From Dehalococcoidia bacterium (lineage in GTDB: Bacteria > Chloroflexota > Dehalococcoidia > Lucifugimonadales > UBA3495), in NCBI GenBank assembly GCA_963667325.2, contig CAXXKY010000006.1, forward strand, positions 49,666-113,665: DNA of 64,000 nucleotides, in the 5' to 3' direction. A program made the translations under genes and the position numbers. The notes under the pieces are model-generated. The model did not search any database, was not told the origin of the DNA, and saw only the letters and a list, made by a program, of their open reading frames with translations. Positions within the stretch are counted from its first letter, which is position 1; each line of letters opens with the position of its first letter. Positions 44,912-62,176 of this stretch are shown piece by piece.

Positions 44912-45970
44912 ATGGAGTCCCCATTGAGCGAGGAGTTGTTGTTAAGCGTCGTCGACCAGTCGCCGGTGAGGTCCGGGGAAACGGCAGGCGACGCCCTGCG
45001 TGAGACCATCGAGCTGGCGGCGGCCGTGGAGGAGATGGGCTACCATCGCTACTGGCTGGCCGAACACCACAGCCTGCCCAACTTCGCCGGCACCAGCCCC
45101 GAGGTGCTCATCGGCCACGTCGCGGCCCGCACCAGGAAGATCCGTGTCGGCAGCGGCGGGGTGATGCTGTCGCATTACAGCGCCTTCAAGGTGGCCGAAA
45201 ACTTCCGGATGCTGGAATCGCTGCATCCGGGCCGCATCGACCTCGGCATCGGGCGCGCGCCGGGCAGCGATCAGATCACGGCCGCGGCGCTGTCCTTTCC
45301 CAACCATCCCAGGGAAATTCGCCACTTCCCCAGGCAGGTGGTCGACCTGCTGGGTTACCTGAGGGGCGATATGGAGGACGGACATATCTTCTCGCAGATA
45401 CAGGCCGGCCCCGACCACGAACCCGTCACCGCGCCCGAGGTATGGCTCCTCGGCTCACGCTATGAGAGCGCATACATGGCGGCGCAGCTCGGGCTGCCCT
45501 TCGCCTACGCCCATTTCTTCGGCATCGCGGTGGAAGAAGGACCGGCAATCGCCGCCAACTACCGCGAAAACTTCAAGCCATCCCAGTTCCTTTCCGAGCC
45601 GAAGGTGAACGTCGGCGTACACGTTATCTGCGCTGAGACTGAGGAGGAGTCGCAGAGGCTGGCGGGCCCCCGCAACCTGGCGCGCCTGCAGAACATCACC
45701 GGCCGCGCCAAGGGCATTCCGACCGTGGAAGAGGCAATGTCCTACCAGTACACGACGGACGAACACCGGTTCGTGCAGCAGTACGCGCAGGTGTGCGTAG
45801 ACGGAGACCCGCAGCAGGTGAAGCAGGGGCTGGACGAAATCGCCGAGCTATATCAGACCAACGACCTGAGCATCGTGACGATTTGCCACGACTACGCGGA
45901 CCGCCGCCGCAGCTACGAGTTGGTCGCCGAGGTCTGCGGCTACACAGGCGAAACGTCGGGACCGGAGTAG
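44912..45970 (+). CDS. LLM-class flavin-dependent oxidoreductase (luciferase family, YhbW-like)
   Basis: 352-aa ORF with YHRYWLAEHHSLPNFAGTSPEVLIGHVAARTRKIRVGSGGVMLSHYS and RIDLGIGRAPG. Confidence 0.85.
   Translation: MESPLSEELLLSVVDQSPVRSGETAGDALRETIELAAAVEEMGYHRYWLAEHHSLPNFAGTSPEVLIGHVAARTRKIRVGSGGVMLSHYSAFKVAENFRMLESLHPGRIDLGIGRAPGSDQITAAALSFPNHPREIRHFPRQVVDLLGYLRGDMEDGHIFSQIQAGPDHEPVTAPEVWLLGSRYESAYMAAQLGLPFAYAHFFGIAVEEGPAIAANYRENFKPSQFLSEPKVNVGVHVICAETEEESQRLAGPRNLARLQNITGRAKGIPTVEEAMSYQYTTDEHRFVQQYAQVCVDGDPQQVKQGLDEIAELYQTNDLSIVTICHDYADRRRSYELVAEVCGYTGETSGPE
45889..45970. repeat. 82-bp direct repeat, left copy (3-prime end of LLM gene 44912-45970)
   Basis: CGACTACGCGGACCGCCGCCGCAGCTACGAGTTGGTCGCCGAGGTCTGCGGCTACACAGGCGAAACGTCGGGACCGGAGTAG. 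About 75 of 82 positions match the copy at 47753-47834. Confidence 0.85.
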
Positions 45971-47867: not shown

Positions 47868-48860
47868 CTACGGCGCCATCACGGTGATGGTGTGGCGGTG
47901 CGACTCCTTGTTGTCGCCGATGGCGAAGGGGGCGACCACCGGCAGCTGCAGGCCGGCGGCGCGGCGGCGTTCCAGAGCGGCGCGGCATTCCTCGGGCGTT
48001 CCGACCACAGCAAGCTGGTCCTGCATTTCTTGCGTGATCGCCTCGGACGCCCGGGCGACGTCCCCGACGGCGAGGGCCTCGGCGGCTTCGGTCATCTCGT
48101 CGCCGAACCCGGTCTCCACGAAGAAGTTGCGGTAGAAGGTGTTGCTGGCGTAGCGCGCCACCTGGCCACGGAGCGAATCCCTGACCGCCTCCTCGTCGCC
48201 GCCGGCCGCCACACGGACGTAGCCGGCGATGTCAATCTCGGACGGGTCCCGCCCCGCCTTCTCTGCGCCGTACTTGACGTGCTCCACCGCCTCCCTGATG
48301 AAGCTCTCGGCGGTCCAGTTCATCAGGACGCCGTCGGCCATCTCTCCAGCAAGCTGCAGCATCTGGGGGCCCAGTGCGGCGATATAGATTGGCACCCGCT
48401 CACGTGGAGCCGCTCCGCCCAGCGAGGCCGACGCGATGTTGAAGTGCCGACCTTCCGTAGCCACCGTCTCCCCCGACAGCAGACCCTTGACGATGCTGAT
48501 GGTCTCCCGCAGCCGGGCCATGGGCTGCCGGAAGGGCACGCCATCGCGCCCTTCGACCGTGGGGCGATGACCCACGCCCAGTCCCAGGATGAAGCGGTCG
48601 CCCGATACCGCGGCCATGCCCGCTGCGCCCATGGCTGTGTTCGTCGCGGTGCGGGCGTAGATGGGCAGTATGCCAGTGCCGAGGCGCACCCGTTCCGTCT
48701 TCATCGCGATGGTCGCAAGCGCGGTCAGAGAGTCCCGGCCGCCGCCTTCGGGCACCCACACCGTCTCGTACCCCAGGTCTTCAGCGAGCTTCCCGAGCTC
48801 CTGGAAGTCCTGTGGTGTGAGGGACGGATCGTTTTCGAAACGAACTCCATAGCGTGCCAT
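47868..48860 (-). CDS. LLM-class F420-dependent oxidoreductase
   Basis: 330-aa ORF with LGYETVWVPEGGGRDSLT, RLGTGILPIYARTA and RFILGLGVGH. Confidence 0.85.
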   Translation of the reverse strand: MARYGVRFENDPSLTPQDFQELGKLAEDLGYETVWVPEGGGRDSLTALATIAMKTERVRLGTGILPIYARTATNTAMGAAGMAAVSGDRFILGLGVGHRPTVEGRDGVPFRQPMARLRETISIVKGLLSGETVATEGRHFNIASASLGGAAPRERVPIYIAALGPQMLQLAGEMADGVLMNWTAESFIREAVEHVKYGAEKAGRDPSEIDIAGYVRVAAGGDEEAVRDSLRGQVARYASNTFYRNFFVETGFGDEMTEAAEALAVGDVARASEAITQEMQDQLAVVGTPEECRAALERRRAAGLQLPVVAPFAIGDNKESHRHTITVMAP

Positions 48861-53914: not shown

Positions 53915-54883
53915 ATGGCTGAAGCACAGAGCGACCGCAGCTTCTACCGCAACTACTATCGCGAGATTGATGTCCTCCACGGACTCCAGTCCGCTCCCGA
54001 AGAGCGCGACTGGCTGCTGACCACCCCGAAGGGCGACGTTAAGCAGTCCGACATCGTCCTGTATCTCGGCTGCAACGTGATGCGCACCACCCATCTGGTA
54101 CGCACCGTGATGGACGTCTTCAAGCTCCTCGACGTGCCCTTCACCGCCGTCGGTGGCGCGGCCTACTGCTGCGGCATCCAGCACCACCAGCGCGGCGACG
54201 AAGCGTCGGCCAAGTCCGTCGCCGCAACCACTGCCGCCAACTTCCGAAAGTTCGAGCCGGAGCAGGTGGTGATGTGGTGCCCGTCCTGCATCTTCTTCTA
54301 CGACGACATCATGGATATGCGGGAGGACTTCCCCTTCCAGCACGTCACCGAATACCTCGTCCAGAACCTCGGCAAGCTTGACCTGCAGCCCCAGCCCGAG
54401 ACCACCGTATCCCTGCATTACCACGCTGGCCGACCCCAGTCCGACGCCGAAGCCCAGAGCGCCCTGACCCTCCTGCGCGCCCTCCCAGGCGTCAACGTCG
54501 TCGATATTGGCGGCGACGAGCGCTTCGGACGCCACTGCACCCCCGCCGTCCGCCAGCAGATGGGCCCCGAAGCCTGGGACGAAATGAGCAATCAGTGGGT
54601 GCAGAAGGCCATCGACAACGGCGCAGACACCTACGCCACGCTGTACCACGGCTGCCAGCGGCACATGTGCGGCCTCGAGGCCGACTACCCCGTCCGCGTC
54701 GAGCACTACCTCACGCTGGTAGGCCGCGCCCTTGGCATCGAATACGAAGACCAGTACAAGAAGCACACCCTTTCTGGCAACCTCGACGCCATAATGGCTG
54801 AAACCGCCCCCTGCGCCGTAGCCAACAGCATCCCCCTGGAGGAAGCAAAGGAAGTCATCGGAAAGGTGTTCCCGGCGCGATAG
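53915..54883 (+). CDS. CCG-domain (heterodisulfide reductase subunit B-like) Fe-S protein
   Basis: 322-aa ORF with LYLGCNVMRTTH...GGAAYCCGI and WCPSC...TLYHGCQRHMCG, a Cys-rich CCG pattern. Confidence 0.6.
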   Translation: MAEAQSDRSFYRNYYREIDVLHGLQSAPEERDWLLTTPKGDVKQSDIVLYLGCNVMRTTHLVRTVMDVFKLLDVPFTAVGGAAYCCGIQHHQRGDEASAKSVAATTAANFRKFEPEQVVMWCPSCIFFYDDIMDMREDFPFQHVTEYLVQNLGKLDLQPQPETTVSLHYHAGRPQSDAEAQSALTLLRALPGVNVVDIGGDERFGRHCTPAVRQQMGPEAWDEMSNQWVQKAIDNGADTYATLYHGCQRHMCGLEADYPVRVEHYLTLVGRALGIEYEDQYKKHTLSGNLDAIMAETAPCAVANSIPLEEAKEVIGKVFPAR

Positions 54884-54888
54884 AGACG

Positions 54889-55371
54889 TCAGAGCGACGT
54901 GAGCGCACCCTCGGGCGACAGCACGTTCAGCCCGTAGCGCGCCTCGATGCCAGAGGAAGCTAGGTCGGCACGAAGGGGCTGGTCTGAGGTTACGAGACTT
55001 GTATCTCTCCCTGTTTCTTCCACCGCTAACCTGACAATGAACTTGTCATCCAGGCTGCCTTGCGGTATGTCTCCCTCTTCAGGAAACGGCGGTGCGGTAT
55101 GGCCCAAGCCCTCGATCTTTCCCTGCACCTGCAACAACTGCCATAGTTGGAGCATCGCGTAGGCGCCCTCTTGGGCGTGATGAAGCCTAGGATTGTTCAG
55201 TTGGTTGTCATATTTGTCCCAGAGGACGTCATCTACTACGAAAGAGTACGGCTCTATATCGGCAATCTTGTCGAATAGCTCTCTGGACACGGGACTGGGC
55301 TGATCGCACTCGTTCAATCCCCTTTGAGCGTATATGACAACGTTCTCGTCGAGGATGTACCTGGTTGTCAT
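54889..55371 (-). CDS. PIN-like domain protein (putative nuclease)
   Basis: 160-aa ORF whose ATG overlaps the upstream stop (ATGA at 55371-55368). YILDENVVIYAQ, VVDDVLW and SLVTSDQPLRADL fit the acidic-residue layout of PIN-like folds. GC is lower than the flanks. Confidence 0.5.
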   Translation of the reverse strand: MTTRYILDENVVIYAQRGLNECDQPSPVSRELFDKIADIEPYSFVVDDVLWDKYDNQLNNPRLHHAQEGAYAMLQLWQLLQVQGKIEGLGHTAPPFPEEGDIPQGSLDDKFIVRLAVEETGRDTSLVTSDQPLRADLASSGIEARYGLNVLSPEGALTSL

Positions 55372-56348
55372 GAGTTCTTTCGAAGTCCGTCAGCATAACG
55401 CCGCATCTCATCTCGGGTGGCCTCGTGGAATCCCGTTAATCCACCCTTCACTTGCCCCCGCTCCGTAACCTCTATTTCCGTGGCGGAGCATTCGCCCTTC
55501 TCGTCCTTCAGGAAAGAGTAAATCGCCAAGTCGTCCGTCGTCAGAGTCCCTTCTGCCACCATAGTCAGCAACCGACCCGCCACGTATTCGCTATGCGTGG
55601 TCATGATGATCTGCTTGTCTTCGGCCTTCGCCATATCCGCCATCACTTCCGCCAAATCCGCCTGCGCCTTCGGATGCAGGTGAATCTCTGGCTCCTCAAT
55701 CAGCACCGTCGCGCCTTTCTCGGCTATAATCAGTTGGTGGAGGAGCTGAATCAAGGAGTTTGTACCAAACCCCTCTCCCAATATATTCACCTCCCTTTCT
55801 TTAATTTTCGATTTCACCTCAACTTTTCGTCCCCGAACTGGATCAGCTATCAGCCCCACGCCGGTCACCTTTACCATCATCTTCGATAATTTATCGGCCT
55901 CCTTGTTCCGATAAACTAGGTTGGTCGCAAGCTGCGCCTCTTGAGCATCGAACCCTTCCCCCAGAGAAAGGTAATCAGCGTCTCGATCCCCTAGATCGTA
56001 ATTTGGCTGAATTAGCCCCCTAACGGCTGGAACAAACCTCAATTCGTCGAATGCCTGTCGTATTTCCTCATTATCTTGCCGCCCGCTGACCTTGACGCTG
56101 AGTGAGAACCCAGAAGATTCTTGCATGAAATTTGGAGCGATTTCGGTCTCCCCAATTAGATCAACGAATTCACCCTGGTAGACGAGGCGATTCCTAGGCT
56201 GTACCAAGGTTTGCTTCCACATGAGCAAGCCCTGCAGCACGCTCGACTTCCCCGTACCGTTAGGGCCGATCAGCACCGTCAGCAGCTTCGGATCAATGCT
56301 GACCTGACGAAAGCACTTGAAGTTCCCCAGCGTGATATTCGTAATCAT
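55368..56348 (-). CDS. ABC-type ATPase of the AAA_21/OLD-like class (defence-associated architecture)
   Basis: 326-aa ORF with NFKCF...LTVLIGPNGTGKSS (Walker A), GEGFGTNSLIQLL (signature-like), TVLIEEPEIHLHP (Walker B) and IMTTHS (H-loop). It has no transmembrane or transporter partner. Confidence 0.75.
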   Translation of the reverse strand: MITNITLGNFKCFRQVSIDPKLLTVLIGPNGTGKSSVLQGLLMWKQTLVQPRNRLVYQGEFVDLIGETEIAPNFMQESSGFSLSVKVSGRQDNEEIRQAFDELRFVPAVRGLIQPNYDLGDRDADYLSLGEGFDAQEAQLATNLVYRNKEADKLSKMMVKVTGVGLIADPVRGRKVEVKSKIKEREVNILGEGFGTNSLIQLLHQLIIAEKGATVLIEEPEIHLHPKAQADLAEVMADMAKAEDKQIIMTTHSEYVAGRLLTMVAEGTLTTDDLAIYSFLKDEKGECSATEIEVTERGQVKGGLTGFHEATRDEMRRYADGLRKNS

Positions 56349-56568
56349 AGCGGCGCCCTCCCACAGTCCATTGTATCAGCCCTGCCTGTGGCCTCCGTTG
56401 CATCAGCCAGCCCCGCAGCGTGATCGCAGCCTTGGGGCCACCGCACCATTTCGCTGACATTCGCCCCTTGCCAGCCCCTGTGGCGCCTCACTAACCTGAT
56501 TCTAGCGGCGGGTGCCAGACACAAACCTCTCTGCCCTTCCTGCAGGTTCGCCTCGATCCCATAATCTC

Positions 56569-56626
56569 GGGATGGCAGGAAATGAGCGGAAATAGGCGGA
56601 AAACAAAAATTTGCCCTCGCGAACCG
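56569..56626. repeat. ~58-bp direct repeat, copy 1 (GGAAAT-rich)
   Basis: GGGATGGCAGGAAATGAGCGGAAATAGGCGGAAAACAAAAATTTGCCCTCGCGAACCG. Confidence 0.75.
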
Positions 56627-56695
56627 TGCAAGTCGGCCCACCAAACCCGCCATCTATATGGATCAACCCAGACCCAGCCACAGGCTCTGAATCGC

Positions 56696-56757
56696 AGGAA
56701 TGACAGGAAATGCGCGGAAATAACAGGAAAATAAATTTTCCCCTGCCAAGCGAGCCG
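56696..56757. repeat. ~60-bp direct repeat, copy 2 (GGAAAT-rich)
   Basis: AGGAATGACAGGAAATGCGCGGAAATAACAGGAAAATAAATTTTCCCCTGCCAAGCGAGCCG. On the minus strand it contains a GGAAAA-ttta-TTTTCC hairpin. Confidence 0.75.
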
Positions 56758-56782
56758 AGAGCGGAGGCTCAACCCCGTGAGA

Positions 56783-56920
56783 TCAGGATGCCATCGCCCC
56801 GTCGGCAAGCACCGGCTCCGTGCGCACCACCGCCCCGTCCGTGAGCACTACCCCGTCGGCGCAATACGCCTCGATGCGCCCCTCGTTGAACTGCTCGGCA
56901 TACAGCCGAGTATAGATCCC
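56783..56920 (-). other. In-frame continuation of the ABC exporter ORF beyond TGA 56921-56923 (45 codons + TGA)
   Basis: Translation is GIYTRLYAEQFNEGRIEAYCADGVVLTDGAVVRTEPVLADGAMAS*. It aligns with the paralogue tail GLYARLYREQYGGGLIEAYCEDGVVYSDGRIVSVGG... Confidence 0.7.
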
Positions 56921-58729
56921 TCAACGCCCCAGCAGTTCCTCGTGTGTCCCGTAATCGTTGATCCGCCCAGCGTTGATAACGAAGATGATGTCCGCCGCCA
57001 GTATCGTCGACAGCCGGTGCGCGATGACCAGCGTCGTCCGACCCTCCACCAGCGGCTTCAGCGCCGACTGCAGCCGCCGTTCGCTACCCATGTCCAGCGC
57101 CGAGGTGGCCTCGTCCAGGATCAGAATGCGAGGCTCGTGCAGCAGCGTCCTGGCAATCGACAGCCGCTGCCTCTCTCCGATGGACAGCCCGAACCCACGT
57201 TCGCCCACCACCGTGGCGTAACCGTCCGGCAACTCCATGATGCGGTCGTGGATGTACGCCGCCTTCGCTGCCGCCACCATCTCCTCTTCCGTCGCATCGG
57301 GCCGGGCGTACCGCAGGTTCTCCTCGATGCTGGTCTGCAACAGGTAGCTCTCCTGCGTGACAAACCCCACCGTCGAGGCCAGATCCGCCAATCGGATGCG
57401 CCGAACGTCGATGCCGTCGATCGACACGGCTCCTTCGGTGGCGTCGTACAGTCGGGGGACCAAAGCCGCGATGGAGGTCTTCCCCGCGCCGCTCGGCCCC
57501 ACGAACGCCGCCAGCTGCCCTGGCTCGATCCGGAACGACACGCCGTCCAGCGTCCACTGACGCGCGTCATCCCCATCGCCGGAAGGCGTATCTCCCCCGT
57601 AACCTCCCTGCCTCCTGACCCGCACCGCGTCGAAAATGACCTCGCCTTCCACAGTTTCCCGGTCAAGAGGCACGGCGTCGGGAGCGTCCGTGATCTCCTG
57701 CTCCAGGTCCAGGTATCCGAAGATGCGCTCGAACAGCGCCACCGACGCTTGCAGGTCCACCGAAACCTGCAGCAGCCGCTCCACAGGCCGGTACAGCTGT
57801 GCCTGCAGAGCTGTGAACGCGATGATAGTACCCGCAGTGGCCGCTCCGGCGCCGCCCGTGTATATCAGGTACCCGGCCAGCAGGTACACCAGTGCCGGCG
57901 ACAGCGTCAGGAAGGCGTTGGCCGCAGTGTAGAAGCTCTGGGCCAGCATCTGCTGCCGCACCGCGAACCGCGAAAGCTCCTCGTTGTGCCGCCGGAAGTG
58001 ATGCAACTCGGCGTGCTGCCTCCCGAACAGCTTCGCCAGCAGTATTCCGGACAGCGACAGTGTCTCCTCCGTCACCGCGGTCACCTGTGCCATGGAAGCC
58101 TGCGTACCGGCCATCAGTTCCCGCCGCTTGCGCCCGACCAACCTGGTCAGCAGGAAGAACACCGGCAGCGCCGCCATCGCCACCACCGTGAACTGCCACG
58201 AGAGCAGCAGCATCGCAACCACGACTGCGATGAGGGCGGCGAAGCTGGCCACAGAATCGGCGAAGGTGTTGGTCACCACCGGCTCGATGCCGTTGATGTC
58301 GTGCGAAACCCGCGACTGCATTTCCCCAGTCCGAGTCCGCGCCAGGAAGTTGACCGACATTCCCAGCAGGTGGTCGTAGACCGCCTCCTGCAGGTCTCCC
58401 GTCACGTCCTGCCCCACCCTGCTCGTAAGGTAGGACTGGGCGATGCTCAGAACCCCGCCGGCCACGGCGATCGCCGCCATCACCCCAGCCAGGACCCACA
58501 GCAGCATCAGGTTCAGCCCGCCTTCCGGTGGGAAGAGAGCGGCGTCGAACACTTCCTTGATCAGGACAGGGTTCGCAACGCCCAGAATGGCGTTGACAAT
58601 GATCAGCAGCCCCACCACGGCAACAGGCAGCCTGTACGGACCAAACAGACCGACAATCCTTCGCGCCACGCCCAGATGGCGGCCACTGTCCAGTTGCCGG
58701 TGATGATGAGGTTGCGGTGATTCCGCCAT
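56921..58729 (-). CDS. ABC exporter, fused permease/ATP-binding subunit (heterodimer partner 2); ends at an internal-looking TGA
   Basis: 602-aa ORF with a six-TM N-half, then GPSGAGKTS, LSIGERQRLSIARTL, ILILDEATSALD and IAHRLST. Confidence 0.85.
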   Translation of the reverse strand: MAESPQPHHHRQLDSGRHLGVARRIVGLFGPYRLPVAVVGLLIIVNAILGVANPVLIKEVFDAALFPPEGGLNLMLLWVLAGVMAAIAVAGGVLSIAQSYLTSRVGQDVTGDLQEAVYDHLLGMSVNFLARTRTGEMQSRVSHDINGIEPVVTNTFADSVASFAALIAVVVAMLLLSWQFTVVAMAALPVFFLLTRLVGRKRRELMAGTQASMAQVTAVTEETLSLSGILLAKLFGRQHAELHHFRRHNEELSRFAVRQQMLAQSFYTAANAFLTLSPALVYLLAGYLIYTGGAGAATAGTIIAFTALQAQLYRPVERLLQVSVDLQASVALFERIFGYLDLEQEITDAPDAVPLDRETVEGEVIFDAVRVRRQGGYGGDTPSGDGDDARQWTLDGVSFRIEPGQLAAFVGPSGAGKTSIAALVPRLYDATEGAVSIDGIDVRRIRLADLASTVGFVTQESYLLQTSIEENLRYARPDATEEEMVAAAKAAYIHDRIMELPDGYATVVGERGFGLSIGERQRLSIARTLLHEPRILILDEATSALDMGSERRLQSALKPLVEGRTTLVIAHRLSTILAADIIFVINAGRINDYGTHEELLGR

Positions 58730-58759
58730 CGTCAGTCCTTTCAGTGCATGGGACTGCTA

Positions 58760-60745
58760 TCAGCGGGACACGCCGGAAGGCGCCGGTTCCCGGCCACCAA
58801 CGGAAACAATACGCCCGTCGCTGTACACCACCCCGTCTTCGCAGTAGGCCTCGATCAGCCCGCCGCCGTACTGCTCCCTGTACAGCCGAGCGTACAGCCC
58901 CTCGTACGACAGCAGCTCATCATGGCTTCCATGCTCCACGATCTTGCCCTTGTCCAGCACGTATATAACGTCGGCCAACAAGATCGTCGACAGCCGGTGC
59001 GCCACCACCATCGTCGTTCGGCCGTGCATCAGCGGCACCAGCGCCGATTGAACGTACCTCTCACTCTCCGTGTCGAGGGACGAGGTCGCCTCGTCCAGAA
59101 TCAGGATTCGAGGCTGATGGAGTATGACCCGTGCGATCGCCAGCCTCTGCCTCTCGCCTCCGGAAAGCCGGAACCCCCGCTCGCCTACTATGGTGTTGTA
59201 GCCCTCCGGCAGTTCCATGATCCGCTCGTGGATGTGAGCTGCCTTGGCCGCCTCCACCAGCTCGAAGCAGGAGGCGTCGGGCTTGGCGTACAGCAAATTC
59301 CTCTCCATGCTGGCGTGGAACAGGTAGCTCTCTTGCGTAACATAGCCGATGCTCTCCGACAGATCCTCAAGCCGTATCTCCCGCACGTCGATGTCGTCTA
59401 TCCGCACTGCGCCTTCCGTTACGTCGTACAGGCGCGGCACCAGGGAGGCGATCGTAGTCTTGCCCGCTCCGCTTGGCCCCACGAATGCCGCCATCTGTCC
59501 CGCTGGAATGTTGAGGCTCACACCGTCCAACGCCCACTCCCGGTCTCCTTCCTGGACGTCTTCTCCTTCGTCTTCAACATCGCCGCCCGAACCGCGACGA
59601 TAGTTCACCCGCACCGAGTCGAAGGTGACCTGTCCCTTCACCCTGTCCGCTGGCAATGGCCGGGCATCGGGCGAGTCAACTATCTCCTGCTTCATATCCA
59701 GATAACCGAAGATGCGCTCGAACATCGCCAGTGACGACTGAAGCTCCACCGAAACCTGCAACAGACGTCCTACCGGGAAGTACAGGCGGTTCTGCAGCAC
59801 GGTGAAGGCGACAACCGTTCCGGCGGTGATAACCGCGGGTCCGCCTCCCGCAATGATGTACCCCGCCAGCAGGTAGATGGCCACCGGGCTTGCCGACAGG
59901 AACGCCATCACCACCGCAAAGAACGCATGGCCGATCATCTGCTGCCTTACCGTCAGGTCCGACAACTCCTGATTGTGCCTGCGGAAGTTCTCCATCTCCG
60001 CATGCTGCCGCCCGAACAGCTTGGCCAGCATGATTCCGGAGACCGATAGCGTTTCCTGGGTAATGACCGTCATTTCGGCCATGGACTTCTGGGTCTGCGA
60101 GGTGATCTCCCTCCTCTTGCGTCCCACCCATTGGGCCAGGAAGAAGTAGATGGGCACCGTGGCCACTGCCACCAGGGTCAACTGCCACGACAGGAACAAC
60201 ATCGCGCCGAGGGTGCTGGCCAGGATGGCGATGTTGGCTATGGTGTCGCTCAGGGTCGTGGTCACCACCTGCTGGATACCGCCGACGTCGTTGGAAACCC
60301 GCGACTGGATTTCGCCCGTGCGCGTGCCGGTGAAGAACCTCAGCGACATCCCTTGCAGGTGTGCGTACACCGAATCCCGCAGGTCTCGCATCACGTACTG
60401 CCCGACCTTGTTGGTCAGGTATGTCTGGACAATGCCCATTGCGGCGTTGGCTGCCGCAATTCCGATCATCACGCCGCCGATGATCCAGAGCAACCTGATA
60501 TTCGGGCCGCTGTCCGACGATATTCCCAGCCCGTCGTCGAACACCACCTGGATGAGCATCGGGTTTACTACACCCACCACCGAAGTCACCAGGATGAGGA
60601 GCACGACCACGGACACCCGGTAGCGGTAGGGAAGGAAGAGCCGCACCACCCGCGGCACCAGGTTCCCCTCGGCATCCGGCACAGGCACAGGCGAGGGCGC
60701 TGCGCCCCCTGCTTCCTGTCCGCTGTGTGAACGTGGATTCGCCAT
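58760..60745 (-). CDS. ABC exporter, fused permease/ATP-binding subunit (heterodimer partner 1)
   Basis: 661-aa ORF with GPSGAGKTT, LSGGERQRLAIARV, ILILDEATSSLD and VAHRLST. It lies 30 nt upstream of its partner. Confidence 0.88.
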   Translation of the reverse strand: MANPRSHSGQEAGGAAPSPVPVPDAEGNLVPRVVRLFLPYRYRVSVVVLLILVTSVVGVVNPMLIQVVFDDGLGISSDSGPNIRLLWIIGGVMIGIAAANAAMGIVQTYLTNKVGQYVMRDLRDSVYAHLQGMSLRFFTGTRTGEIQSRVSNDVGGIQQVVTTTLSDTIANIAILASTLGAMLFLSWQLTLVAVATVPIYFFLAQWVGRKRREITSQTQKSMAEMTVITQETLSVSGIMLAKLFGRQHAEMENFRRHNQELSDLTVRQQMIGHAFFAVVMAFLSASPVAIYLLAGYIIAGGGPAVITAGTVVAFTVLQNRLYFPVGRLLQVSVELQSSLAMFERIFGYLDMKQEIVDSPDARPLPADRVKGQVTFDSVRVNYRRGSGGDVEDEGEDVQEGDREWALDGVSLNIPAGQMAAFVGPSGAGKTTIASLVPRLYDVTEGAVRIDDIDVREIRLEDLSESIGYVTQESYLFHASMERNLLYAKPDASCFELVEAAKAAHIHERIMELPEGYNTIVGERGFRLSGGERQRLAIARVILHQPRILILDEATSSLDTESERYVQSALVPLMHGRTTMVVAHRLSTILLADVIYVLDKGKIVEHGSHDELLSYEGLYARLYREQYGGGLIEAYCEDGVVYSDGRIVSVGGREPAPSGVSR

Positions 60746-61045: not shown

Positions 61046-62176
61046 CTACCAGTCCTTGATGATTGGCAGCACCTCCTTGCCAAACAGCCCGATATTCGAC
61101 ATCGTGGCGTCGTGGGACATCTTGGACTCTTGCCCGTACATGATCAGGTGGTCCATTCCCAGTCGCGTGTGGATGTACTCCAGCTTTTCCAGCACCTGGT
61201 CCGGCGTGCCGCAGACGATGTGGTAGTTCTCCTTCAGTTCCTCGTAGGTCTGGTTCGCCAGCGGCTTGATCGTGCGTCGCGCGGCGATGGACGCGCTGGC
61301 CTGCGACCGGTAGCCCACCGGGTTCATGTACTCCCGAGGCGCCCGCGTCGTGGCTCCCATTCGCCAGACGAAATGCTTGGCCTCCTCGTTGGCCTTCTCC
61401 TCGGTCTCCGCCACGTAGCAGCACAACAGGTAGCCGAAGTTGTCGGGCGTCGTCTCCCGTCCCTCCTCGGCGGCGGCCTCCCGGTACATCCCGAACAGCT
61501 CCTCGGTCACTTCCACATCCGTCAGGAAGGCGACGTACGTGTATCCATGCCGTCCGGCCCACTGCGCCGTCTCCGGGCTGGAGGTGCCGGGCACCCACAC
61601 CGGCGGATGCGGCTTCTGGATCGGCACCATCCACGGGTTGACCGCCCGGTAGTTGTAGTGCTTGCCCTCCCAGCGAAACGGCCCCGGCGTGCTCCAGGTC
61701 TTGATCAGCAGGTCGTGGCACTCCTCGAACCGTTCCCGGTTCTCCACCGGATTCATGTTGGTCGAGACCGTCTCCACGCCGGTGCCCCGGACCATTCCGG
61801 AGATGACCCGCCCGCCGGAGATCACGTCGATCATCGCGATCTCTTCCGCCAGCCGCACCGGGTTCTCATGGATGGGCAGAATGTTCCCCAGCAGCAGTAT
61901 CTTGGCGTTCTGCGTGGTGCGGGCCAGCACTGCCGCCGTCAGGTTGCACGACGCGTTCATGCACGACGGCGTGCTGTGGTGCTCGTTCACCATGATCCCG
62001 TCGTAGCCCAGCTCGTCCACGTACTGGCACTCGTCGAAGTACCGCTTGAAGAGCTGATTGGCCGTCGGCGGATCGAAGTTGCTGTTGGGGAAGGTGAGCC
62101 GTATCGACGGGTACTTGAGGCTCTCCTCATCAGAATACTCGTGATACGGAAACTCGCTGAAGTAGTAGACCTTCAT
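61046..62176 (-). CDS. LLM-class flavin-dependent monooxygenase/oxidoreductase
   Basis: 376-aa ORF with LGYDGIMVNEHHSTP, LGNILPIHENPVRLAEEIAMIDVISGGR and PHPPVWVPG. Confidence 0.85.
   Translation of the reverse strand: MKVYYFSEFPYHEYSDEESLKYPSIRLTFPNSNFDPPTANQLFKRYFDECQYVDELGYDGIMVNEHHSTPSCMNASCNLTAAVLARTTQNAKILLLGNILPIHENPVRLAEEIAMIDVISGGRVISGMVRGTGVETVSTNMNPVENRERFEECHDLLIKTWSTPGPFRWEGKHYNYRAVNPWMVPIQKPHPPVWVPGTSSPETAQWAGRHGYTYVAFLTDVEVTEELFGMYREAAAEEGRETTPDNFGYLLCCYVAETEEKANEEAKHFVWRMGATTRAPREYMNPVGYRSQASASIAARRTIKPLANQTYEELKENYHIVCGTPDQVLEKLEYIHTRLGMDHLIMYGQESKMSHDATMSNIGLFGKEVLPIIKDW

Follow-up and report, generated by a model that had tools for sequence, protein, structure and literature searches.

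What is the function of a pair of overlapping genes that is clearly lower in GC content than the metabolic genes around it, and does it constitute a defence system of its own kind? The question is raised by positions 54,889 to 56,348 of a stretch of 64,000 nucleotides (in the following: the window) of contig CAXXKY010000006.1 from a Dehalococcoidia bacterium, which encode an ABC-type ATPase and a small PIN-fold protein. An initial annotation made from the sequence alone had proposed an uncharacterised defence or abortive-infection module. The observations given below support that the pair shows the hallmarks of a conflict system, i.e., it is accessory, mobile, low in GC and represented by divergent alleles. 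We favour, with a probability of roughly 0.6, the reading that the two genes form a self-contained conflict module (anti-phage, of abortive-infection type) that is related to Menshen and has the architecture of HEC-03. Its ATPase would serve as sensor/regulator and its active PIN protein as effector.

Menshen comprises NsnA (ParB-DUF262 plus ParBDB), NsnB (ABC ATPase plus DUF3696) and NsnC (inactive PIN domain, inPIN, plus C-terminal nuclease); our source is Millman et al. 2022 as cited and analysed in Li et al. (NAR 2025, PMC12065111). HEC-03 (Hma-embedded candidate 03, Payne et al.) consists of two genes for an ABC ATPase and a VapC-like PIN protein, named HEC-03B and HEC-03A in PADLOC. In E. 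coli it confers protection from phages, for which both genes are required, and apparent toxicity was seen on induction (10.1101/2024.01.29.577857). The locus in the window is composed as follows.

55368..56348, minus strand: open reading frame (ORF) of the ABC-type ATPase, 326 aa; NsnB-like, with HEC-03B as second-best model; a minimal form in which most of the segment Insert-1 is missing.
54889..55371, minus strand: ORF of the stand-alone PIN-fold protein, 160 aa; predicted Mg2+-dependent RNase effector.
55368..55371, minus strand: ATGA stop/start overlap, where the TGA of the ATPase gene shares bases with the ATG of the PIN gene; translational coupling.
56349..56920, minus strand: upstream non-coding gap of 572 bp; presumed promoter/regulatory region that holds a 39-nt direct repeat.

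Scanning 185,579 species genomes yields 60 loci of the PIN family, all from metagenome-assembled genomes of Dehalococcoidia/Chloroflexota, i.e., the close PIN subfamily is found only in genomes of this group. The ATPase gene is directly upstream of the PIN gene in all 59 testable loci, most of which keep the ATGA junction; a further locus (L012) is cut by a contig end and was excluded from this count. The adjacency is therefore not a matter of chance. Two distant members (L061 and L067, with 32% and 25% PIN identity) are paired as well and show an ATPase of about 422 aa with AAA_15/AAA_21 match upstream, again with a 4-nt overlap. Both the overlap of the ATPase TGA with the ATG of the 160-aa ORF (ATGA at 55371-55368) and the conservation as a pair, which the initial annotation had reported and proposed to test, respectively, are thus confirmed. 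Clustering the flanking ORFs across the genome loci yields no third conserved gene, and no NsnA/DUF262 gene is present in the related genome loci or among the Pfam-annotated neighbours of L061-L067 and L151. More than 15 different contexts occur, in which the pair is surrounded by housekeeping genes.

The GC content of the pair is 0.53 vs. 0.63 in its flanks (a drop of about 0.10), and the profile remains at 0.49-0.57 over positions 54750-56750 and at 0.63-0.66 on both sides. The values at third codon positions (GC3) are 0.62-0.66 for the pair and 0.80-0.85 for four neighbouring genes. The low-GC islet pointed out in the initial annotation is thus real, but it is not a sign of recent arrival. 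That is, the pair is lower in GC than its flanks in 59/59 related loci (0.537 vs. 0.617), such that the low GC is to be considered intrinsic to the module.

For the ATPase, Pfam reports AAA_15 (1e-30) and AAA_21 (9e-24). The best PADLOC model is NsnB of Menshen, which covers nearly the whole protein (E 2.4e-47, residues 1-317 vs. model positions 1-341 of 345); further matching models are AriA, HEC-03B and PDC-M55A. The same picture is obtained for 33 diverse members of the ATPase family, i.e., NsnB is the top model for 33/33 (best E 8e-53), with HEC-03B (best E 1.5e-39) as second and AriA (1.9e-37) as third. The AriA/PtuA-type matches are confined to the conserved nucleotide-binding segments, whereas the NsnB model aligns through the tail of the ATPase almost to the end of the model. 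Among plasmid sequences, tblastn with the window ATPase as query retrieves mostly 'DUF3696 domain-containing proteins' as its nearest relatives. For the AlphaFold2 (AF2) model of the protein (pLDDT, the predicted score of the local distance difference test, 86.9; predicted template modelling score, pTM, 0.88), Foldseek ranks PtuA of Septu and retron systems nearest (E ~1e-12, template modelling score, TM, 0.5-0.6), followed by retron Eco8, SMC, Rad50 and OLD. Pfam, the PADLOC models and Foldseek thus agree on the AAA_21/OLD-class defence-type ATPase that had been suggested from the sequence. The following features are distinguished, where invariance was judged across the 33 family members.

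56244..56267, minus strand: Walker A / P-loop GPNGTGKS, residues 28-35; G28, N30, G31, G33 and K34 invariant (alignments A3 and A4).
56031..56210, minus strand: Insert-1, residues 47-106; hypervariable segment of the family, a stub in the window.
55758..55775, minus strand: ABC signature variant EGFGTN, residues 192-197; GxG replaces SGG; E192, G193, G195 and N197 invariant.
55686..55709, minus strand: Walker B TVLIEEPE, residues 214-221, then HLHP; E218, E219, P220, E221, H223, L224, H225 and P226 invariant.
55590..55598, minus strand: H-loop THS, residues 251-253; T251, H252 and S253 invariant.
55371..55538, minus strand: C-terminal beta-hairpin and terminal helix, residues 271-326; putative PIN docking site.

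All motif strings that the initial annotation had listed are present with invariant key residues, i.e., GPNGTGKS (28-35), GEGFGTNSL (191-199), LIEEPEIHLHP (216-226) and TTHS (250-253). Invariant is also R110 at the Q-loop position, and a terminal helix is predicted at residues 312-325. Insert-1 shows a mean pairwise identity of only 0.19 and large indels, where relatives of about 415-425 aa have about 100 extra residues. Short ATPases like that of the window (321-328 aa) are nevertheless common, being present in eight genome loci and in most of the closest database matches.

The 160-aa protein as a single sequence has no match in Pfam, PADLOC, NCBIfam, PHROGs or PDB sequences, which is why fold- and family-profile-based approaches are needed; an exact look-up of the window's PIN protein (P0001) found it not on record. 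Its AF2 model is of high confidence (pLDDT 94.1, pTM 0.89), and the top Foldseek matches are all PIN domains (E ~1e-3, TM ~0.5), among them HARP RNase P (7og5), PAE2754 (1v8p), VapC of M. tuberculosis (7vwo, a chain of a toxin-antitoxin complex) and SSO1118. Comparing the family profile with the PDB gives weak but consistent PIN/NYN matches, i.e., 1o4w (E 0.006), ZC3H12C (E 0.03), HARP and KHNYN. A PIN fold of the protein is thereby supported at the level of model and profile. The acidic positions are listed below for the close family (alignment A1) and for the wider family of members that are 21-51% identical to the window protein (A2).

55342..55350, minus strand: PIN motif 1, D8-E9-N10 (ILDEN); located where strand beta-1 ends; invariant in A1, D8 and E9 at least 90% conserved in A2.
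55231..55233, minus strand: D47 (VVDD), the canonical second acidic PIN position; invariant in the Dehalococcoidia subfamily A1.
55045..55050, minus strand: PIN motif 3, D108-D109 (GSxDD); located at a helix N-terminus; invariant in A1, D109 at least 90% conserved in A2.
54982..54984, minus strand: PIN motif 4, D130 (LVT[ST]D); invariant in A1 and A2.

Taken together, the close family shows no variation at D8-E9-N10, D47, G105-S106, D108-D109 and D130, and D8, E9, D109, T128 and D130 are conserved to at least 90% in the wider one. Motif 1 aligns with 'VVDTNV' of 1o4w (in a sub-threshold HMMER stretch), motif 3 with 'DDRFIV' of the Regnase-type PIN domain of ZC3H12C and 'GDPSLI' of 1o4w, and motif 4 with 'SND' and 'TND' of the two, respectively. 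The aspartates aligned with motifs 3 and 4 are the metal-binding residues of these nucleases, and the PIN active site of the window protein appears intact. The PIN-like layout proposed in the initial annotation is hence borne out by fold and acidic site. Its strings YILDEN (5-10), VVDD (45-48) and LVTSDQP (126-132) are all present, while the third catalytic position, GSxDD (105-109), had been overlooked.

The family is large and uniform. At least 161 clusters at 90% identity are found, nearly all of them with 154-160 aa, and a profile search of 1.84 billion representative proteins yields 305 members (50% identity representatives). The best 150 of these 305 are all small single-domain proteins (about 145-185 aa when full-length; shorter entries are partial), and no longer, NsnC-like relative is among them. 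Within a set of 53 diverse members of the wider family, 4/53 give weak PIN_9, PIN_3 or PIN matches. Neither pattern scans of IMG/VR nor tblastn against phage and plasmid records provide a match of the PIN family. Eight of the 53, all distant (A2, e.g., P0268-P0388), weakly match the untested PADLOC candidate model PDC-M11A (best E 2.7e-5), i.e., the wider PIN family may overlap with this predicted, uncharacterised defence candidate.

Next to the composition of the pair, its behaviour on the chromosome is informative. About 25 loci share the context of the window, i.e., a luciferase-like (LLM-type) oxidoreductase and two ABC exporter genes upstream as well as CCG/HdrB-like, GGT and peroxiredoxin (Prx) genes downstream, and the chromosomal junction at which the pair resides between these housekeeping genes is fixed within the window clade. 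For 18 syntenic loci, the median pairwise identity is 91-93% for LLM, HdrB-like, GGT and Prx, while ATPase and PIN protein reach only 62% and 55%, respectively. The divergence of ATPase and PIN protein is correlated (rho 0.53), while that of either compared to the HdrB-like protein is not (rho about 0). Synonymous divergence (dS) according to NG86 is about 0.5-0.9 for the flanks and 1.0-4.9 or saturated for the pair, a contrast that is partly confounded by saturation and by the lower GC3 of the pair. The ratio of nonsynonymous to synonymous divergence (dN/dS, NG86) of the pair is 0.05-0.23, so both genes are under purifying selection; gene-wide positive selection was considered for the pair and rejected on these values. 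The alleles of the pair thus appear older than the divergence of their host genomes. Such an excess of allele over host divergence suggests, subject to the same two caveats, that alleles are exchanged at a site that is itself fixed.

In a related marine clade with equal gene order, the junction between the HdrB-like and the exporter genes is empty in three loci (73-78 bp in L077, L080 and L081), while it holds the pair in L097. That is, the pair is accessory. Furthermore, a 54%-identical ATPase-PIN pair is found within a prophage-like or integrative element (L064:1-16492 and L065). Besides numerous small ORFs, the element encodes a phage zinc-binding protein, HNH endonucleases and a tyrosine integrase, together with DUF5677, a fusion of N6/N4 methyltransferase and HNH, and transposases.

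The two genes also seem to diverge in a segment-specific manner. Spearman correlation of PIN divergence is highest with the C-terminal 56 residues of the ATPase (0.74 and 0.69), lower with its core (0.54) and lowest with Insert-1 (0.27). The locus with the most window-like ATPase body (L042, 69%) has yet a different tail type, and its PIN protein is only 47% identical. This fits an interaction unit of tail and PIN protein that would be exchanged separately from the sensor insert, and docking of the PIN protein on the ATPase tail (residues 271-326) is what we infer from these correlations and from the related systems.

By analogy with PARIS, Septu, HEC-03 and the AlphaFold3 (AF3) models of Menshen, the module could work as follows. 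The ATPase would oligomerise via the usual head-to-head interface of ABC proteins and hold the PIN protein inactive by its C-terminal hairpin and helix. A phage-derived cue, in most relatives probably read by the hypervariable Insert-1, would then alter ATP binding or hydrolysis. As Insert-1 is nearly absent from the window ATPase, another surface would have to read the cue here. The PIN nuclease would thereby be released or activated and cleave RNA in a metal-dependent manner, such that growth of the infected cell stops. In this scheme, the PIN domain itself would be the effector, with neither an NsnA sensor nor a separate C-terminal toxin domain involved.

A number of observations weigh against this reading. 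Within the local neighbourhoods examined, essentially none of the loci shows a defence island around the pair. The window ATPase is devoid of most of Insert-1, i.e., of its presumed sensor, and Pfam DUF3696 is reported neither for it nor among 120 listed homologues. For the PIN protein, the position of D47 is kept in the subfamily only and varies (S/N/T/D) in the wider family A2. The protein has no HEC-03A match at E <= 1, and an hhalign comparison of its family with two HEC-03 PIN proteins is weak, with probabilities of 31% (E 5e-4, collinear, 127 columns) and 6%. A PADLOC NsnC match is likewise absent. Finally, saturation and GC3 reduce the weight of the dS contrast, as stated above.

The strongest competing explanation is a toxin-antitoxin (TA) or addiction module, in which a VapC-like PIN toxin is combined with a large ATP-dependent antitoxin or chaperone ATPase and which persists selfishly or by post-segregational effects with no dedicated anti-phage role. 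In type II TA operons, the neutraliser gene typically lies upstream and overlaps the toxin gene by 4 nt, an arrangement that the overlap of the ATPase with the PIN gene resembles. In addition, VapC toxins are among the nearest PIN structures, Pfam describes AAA_21 as 'putative AbiEii toxin, Type IV TA system', the pair sits among housekeeping genes outside of defence islands, and one distant pair (L067) adjoins a HicB-like antitoxin gene. On the other hand, the ATPase motifs are all invariant and the hypervariable Insert-1 resembles a sensor surface rather than part of a simple neutraliser. Moreover, HEC-03, which among characterised systems comes closest in architecture, has been demonstrated to defend against phages and depends on both genes for this. 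We thus consider a pure TA module unlikely. Since TA function and abortive infection are not mutually exclusive, it overlaps with the favoured conflict module and differs from it mainly in the dominant selective benefit.

Less compatible with the data is a housekeeping or stress-related RNA-processing pair, i.e., an ATP-dependent regulator with a PIN RNase acting on rRNA, tRNA or mRNA of the host, possibly linked to the exporter. PIN domains also mature RNA and HARP RNase P is among the fold matches; the pair is co-oriented with the two ABC exporter genes in about 25 loci, and its chromosomal site is fixed in one clade. The exporter linkage is, however, restricted to this clade, with more than 15 other contexts elsewhere, and there are relatives in which the exporter is retained next to an empty junction, for which reasons a functional link of the pair to the ABC exporter was rejected. 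A gap of 572 bp separates pair and exporter in the window. A housekeeping role is also difficult to reconcile with a pair that is far more divergent than its neighbours, follows a discordant history, is persistently atypical in GC and occurs, as a homologous pair, inside a prophage-like element. We regard this explanation as improbable.

That the pair is a decayed Menshen, i.e., a non-functional remnant after loss of NsnA and of the NsnC toxin domain, is already largely refuted and hardly credible: NsnB is the best full-length model of the ATPase, the fold encoded downstream is PIN-like as in the N-terminal NsnC domain and sporadic domain loss has been reported for Menshen (PMC12065111), but no related locus, distant members included, has an NsnA/DUF262 gene, the best 150 of the 305 family members are all small with none NsnC-like, purifying selection acts on both genes (dN/dS 0.05-0.23), neither the ATPase motifs nor the PIN aspartates vary, and the catalytic residues are kept while inPINs are reported to be devoid of them.

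Several further observations concern the surroundings of the pair. The gap upstream of the ATPase gene spans 572 bp in the window and only 245 bp in the closest relative (L151), and contains neither a conserved ORF nor an NsnA remnant. Its 39-nt direct repeat (56569-56607 and 56697-56735, 82% identical, 128 nt apart) has the core CAGGAAATGNGCGGAAATA and is absent elsewhere in the window and in 150 loci. It may represent either a regulatory site or the scar of an insertion. An Arg-rich ORF of 102 aa (56345..56653, minus strand) shows an ATGA overlap with the ATPase start and thereby mimics a third coupled gene. It was rejected as such, as it formed no cluster across the related genome loci, and is probably spurious. 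Neither a sigma-70-like promoter nor a terminator or an Rfam match was found around the pair.

The tandem ABC exporter genes upstream of the pair (56921-60745, minus strand) show a median amino acid identity of 77-79% among syntenic genomes, i.e., they diverge faster than the remaining flanking genes (91-93%). Three ORFs of the window (61046-62176, 47868-48860 and 44912-45970) form one BLAST-linked cluster; the first of them is orthologous to a protein resembling LLM-class flavin oxidoreductases, and similar genes recur in related loci. The contigs closest to the window stem from TARA marine samples, in keeping with an origin from marine Dehalococcoidia of the SAR202 type.

The junction between HdrB-like and exporter genes also accommodates other cargo. 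Within the metagenome loci L071-L105, which were anchored on the HdrB-like gene, the inserted genes encode an LLM paralogue, a CoA-transferase-like protein or a GIY-YIG protein that may (L076) or may not be accompanied by a large serine recombinase. A fumarate-reductase cluster, which in L082 comprises fumarate reductase and fumarase, is also found at this position. The closest relative, a TARA metagenome contig (L151:7618-9726), has three extra genes between its PIN and CCG/HdrB-like genes. They encode an ACT-domain protein, a pyridoxal-dependent decarboxylase and a PaREP1-like protein, and show that the junction downstream of the pair varies, too. The distant pair of L067 (25% PIN identity) lies directly downstream of its HicB-like antitoxin gene and a 68-aa ORF (L067:5926-6573). 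The latter may be the HicA partner, such that two toxin-type modules would be located side by side.

How does the pair relate to known systems? With VapBC it shares a small effector of VapC-like PIN fold with conserved acidic residues, encoded by a gene that overlaps its upstream neighbour. The upstream partner of VapC is, however, the small DNA-binding VapB and not a 326-aa ABC ATPase, and the window PIN protein is without a Pfam PIN sequence match. With regard to the class of OLD/ABC ATPases with nuclease (Septu, PARIS, Gabija), the pair presents full Walker A, Walker B, signature and H-loop motifs as well as an adjacent partner of nuclease fold. In PARIS/Septu-type systems, a dimer or oligomer of the ATPase binds and gates the nuclease (PMC12065111). 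PtuAB of Septu/retrons and AriAB of PARIS likewise join a small effector nuclease to a soluble ABC ATPase of the OLD class; the nuclease is of HNH (PtuB) or Toprim/DUF4435 (AriB) type in contrast to the PIN protein of the window.

Compared to Menshen, the window ATPase has its best, full-length match in NsnB and shares two of the motif deviations reported for NsnB, i.e., Arg for the Gln of the Q-loop (R110 here) and GxG for SGG, while Walker B is EN in NsnB (PMC12065111) and EE in the window family. In both systems the gene directly downstream of the ATPase encodes a PIN-fold domain (NsnC in Menshen), and both partners are hypervariable. AF3 models of Menshen place the inPIN domain of NsnC in the hold of the DUF3696 C-terminal tail of NsnB (PMC12065111). 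The Menshen inPIN domains, which fall into 35 families, are, however, reported to be hypervariable and without catalytic residues (PMC12065111), whereas the window family keeps its aspartates. Furthermore, Menshen has NsnA upstream, where the window shows the 572-bp gap followed by the ABC exporter. The pair is thus not a Menshen system, given that NsnA and an effector domain are absent and the PIN site is intact; only the ABC core of its ATPase agrees with the definition. As the Menshen survey was anchored on NsnA (PMC12065111), pairs without NsnA would not have been collected there.

These relations invite a bolder proposal. The PIN family might be the active stand-alone counterpart, possibly the ancestral state, of the inactive PIN of Menshen. 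That is, NsnB/HEC-03B ATPases would first have gated an active PIN RNase, and Menshen would later have added the ParB-DUF262 sensor and fused toxin domains to a decayed PIN. The Dehalococcoidia pairs would then be a distinct, unnamed defence family with a specificity that changes via cassette-like swaps of Insert-1 and of tail plus PIN at a fixed junction. We put this forward tentatively and consider it possible rather than probable; if true, it would explain the origin of the Menshen 'inactive PIN' domain.

The closest architecture is that of HEC-03. Two plasmid loci that we inspected, L153 (Aeromonas caviae) and L154 (Rhodococcus aetherivorans), are bona fide HEC-03. Their ATPases match HEC-03B over the full length (E 1e-110 to 1e-134, 367-445 bits), the overlapping PIN protein of about 170 aa matches HEC-03A (E 2e-24), and neither locus has NsnA. 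Both ATPases also match NsnB with about 199 bits, which points to a close relationship between the NsnB and HEC-03B families. HEC-03 and the window pair share the order of ATPase and PIN protein, overlapping genes and the lack of a DUF262 sensor gene. They differ in the ATPase, which has about 460-470 aa in HEC-03 vs. 326 aa in the window and matches only the C-terminal part of HEC-03B (residues 175-307 vs. model positions 302-433 of 458; 106 bits). They also differ in the PIN protein, i.e., the 53 diverse members of the window's PIN family provide no match with the HEC-03A (E <= 0.01) or NsnC models. Both plasmid loci carry a gene of an 'RNA ligase family protein' directly after the HEC-03 pair (L153:5585-6286 and L154:5567-6166; no PADLOC match), which the window pair does not have. 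It may be a conserved third component or an RNA-repair/immunity partner of the PIN RNase.

This comparison also settles what is new. The initial annotation had taken the PIN partner as indication of a possibly unnamed kind of system. This is not supported, since HEC-03 is an already validated defence pair of ABC ATPase and PIN protein, which pre-empts the claim of a new partner type and means that no new principle is involved. Nor is the partner a novelty among NsnB-class ATPases, as NsnB itself partners with the PIN-like N-terminal domain of NsnC (PMC12065111). That the pair is not a named system, on the other hand, is upheld by the model searches, where NsnB matches the ATPase only, HEC-03B matches partially and the PIN protein is unmatched. 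PADLOC-type tools would consequently report an orphan NsnB at such loci and no complete Menshen, with the PIN partner unrecognised by the defence models tested. What is new, judged by profile and model searches, is a PIN family undescribed in Pfam, PADLOC, NCBIfam and PHROGs that is coupled to a minimal NsnB-class ATPase.

If the favoured reading is true, the pair provides a minimal natural model (326 and 160 aa, no extra sensor protein) of an ABC ATPase that gates a nuclease, and it documents a defence-like, rapidly exchanged module in uncultivated marine and subsurface Dehalococcoidia/Chloroflexota. By its model matches, the pair is HEC-03-like in architecture and Menshen-related while being a detectable member of neither. 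It would thus represent a third branch beside Menshen and HEC-03 among the systems with NsnB-class ATPases, one in which the PIN protein itself is the effector.

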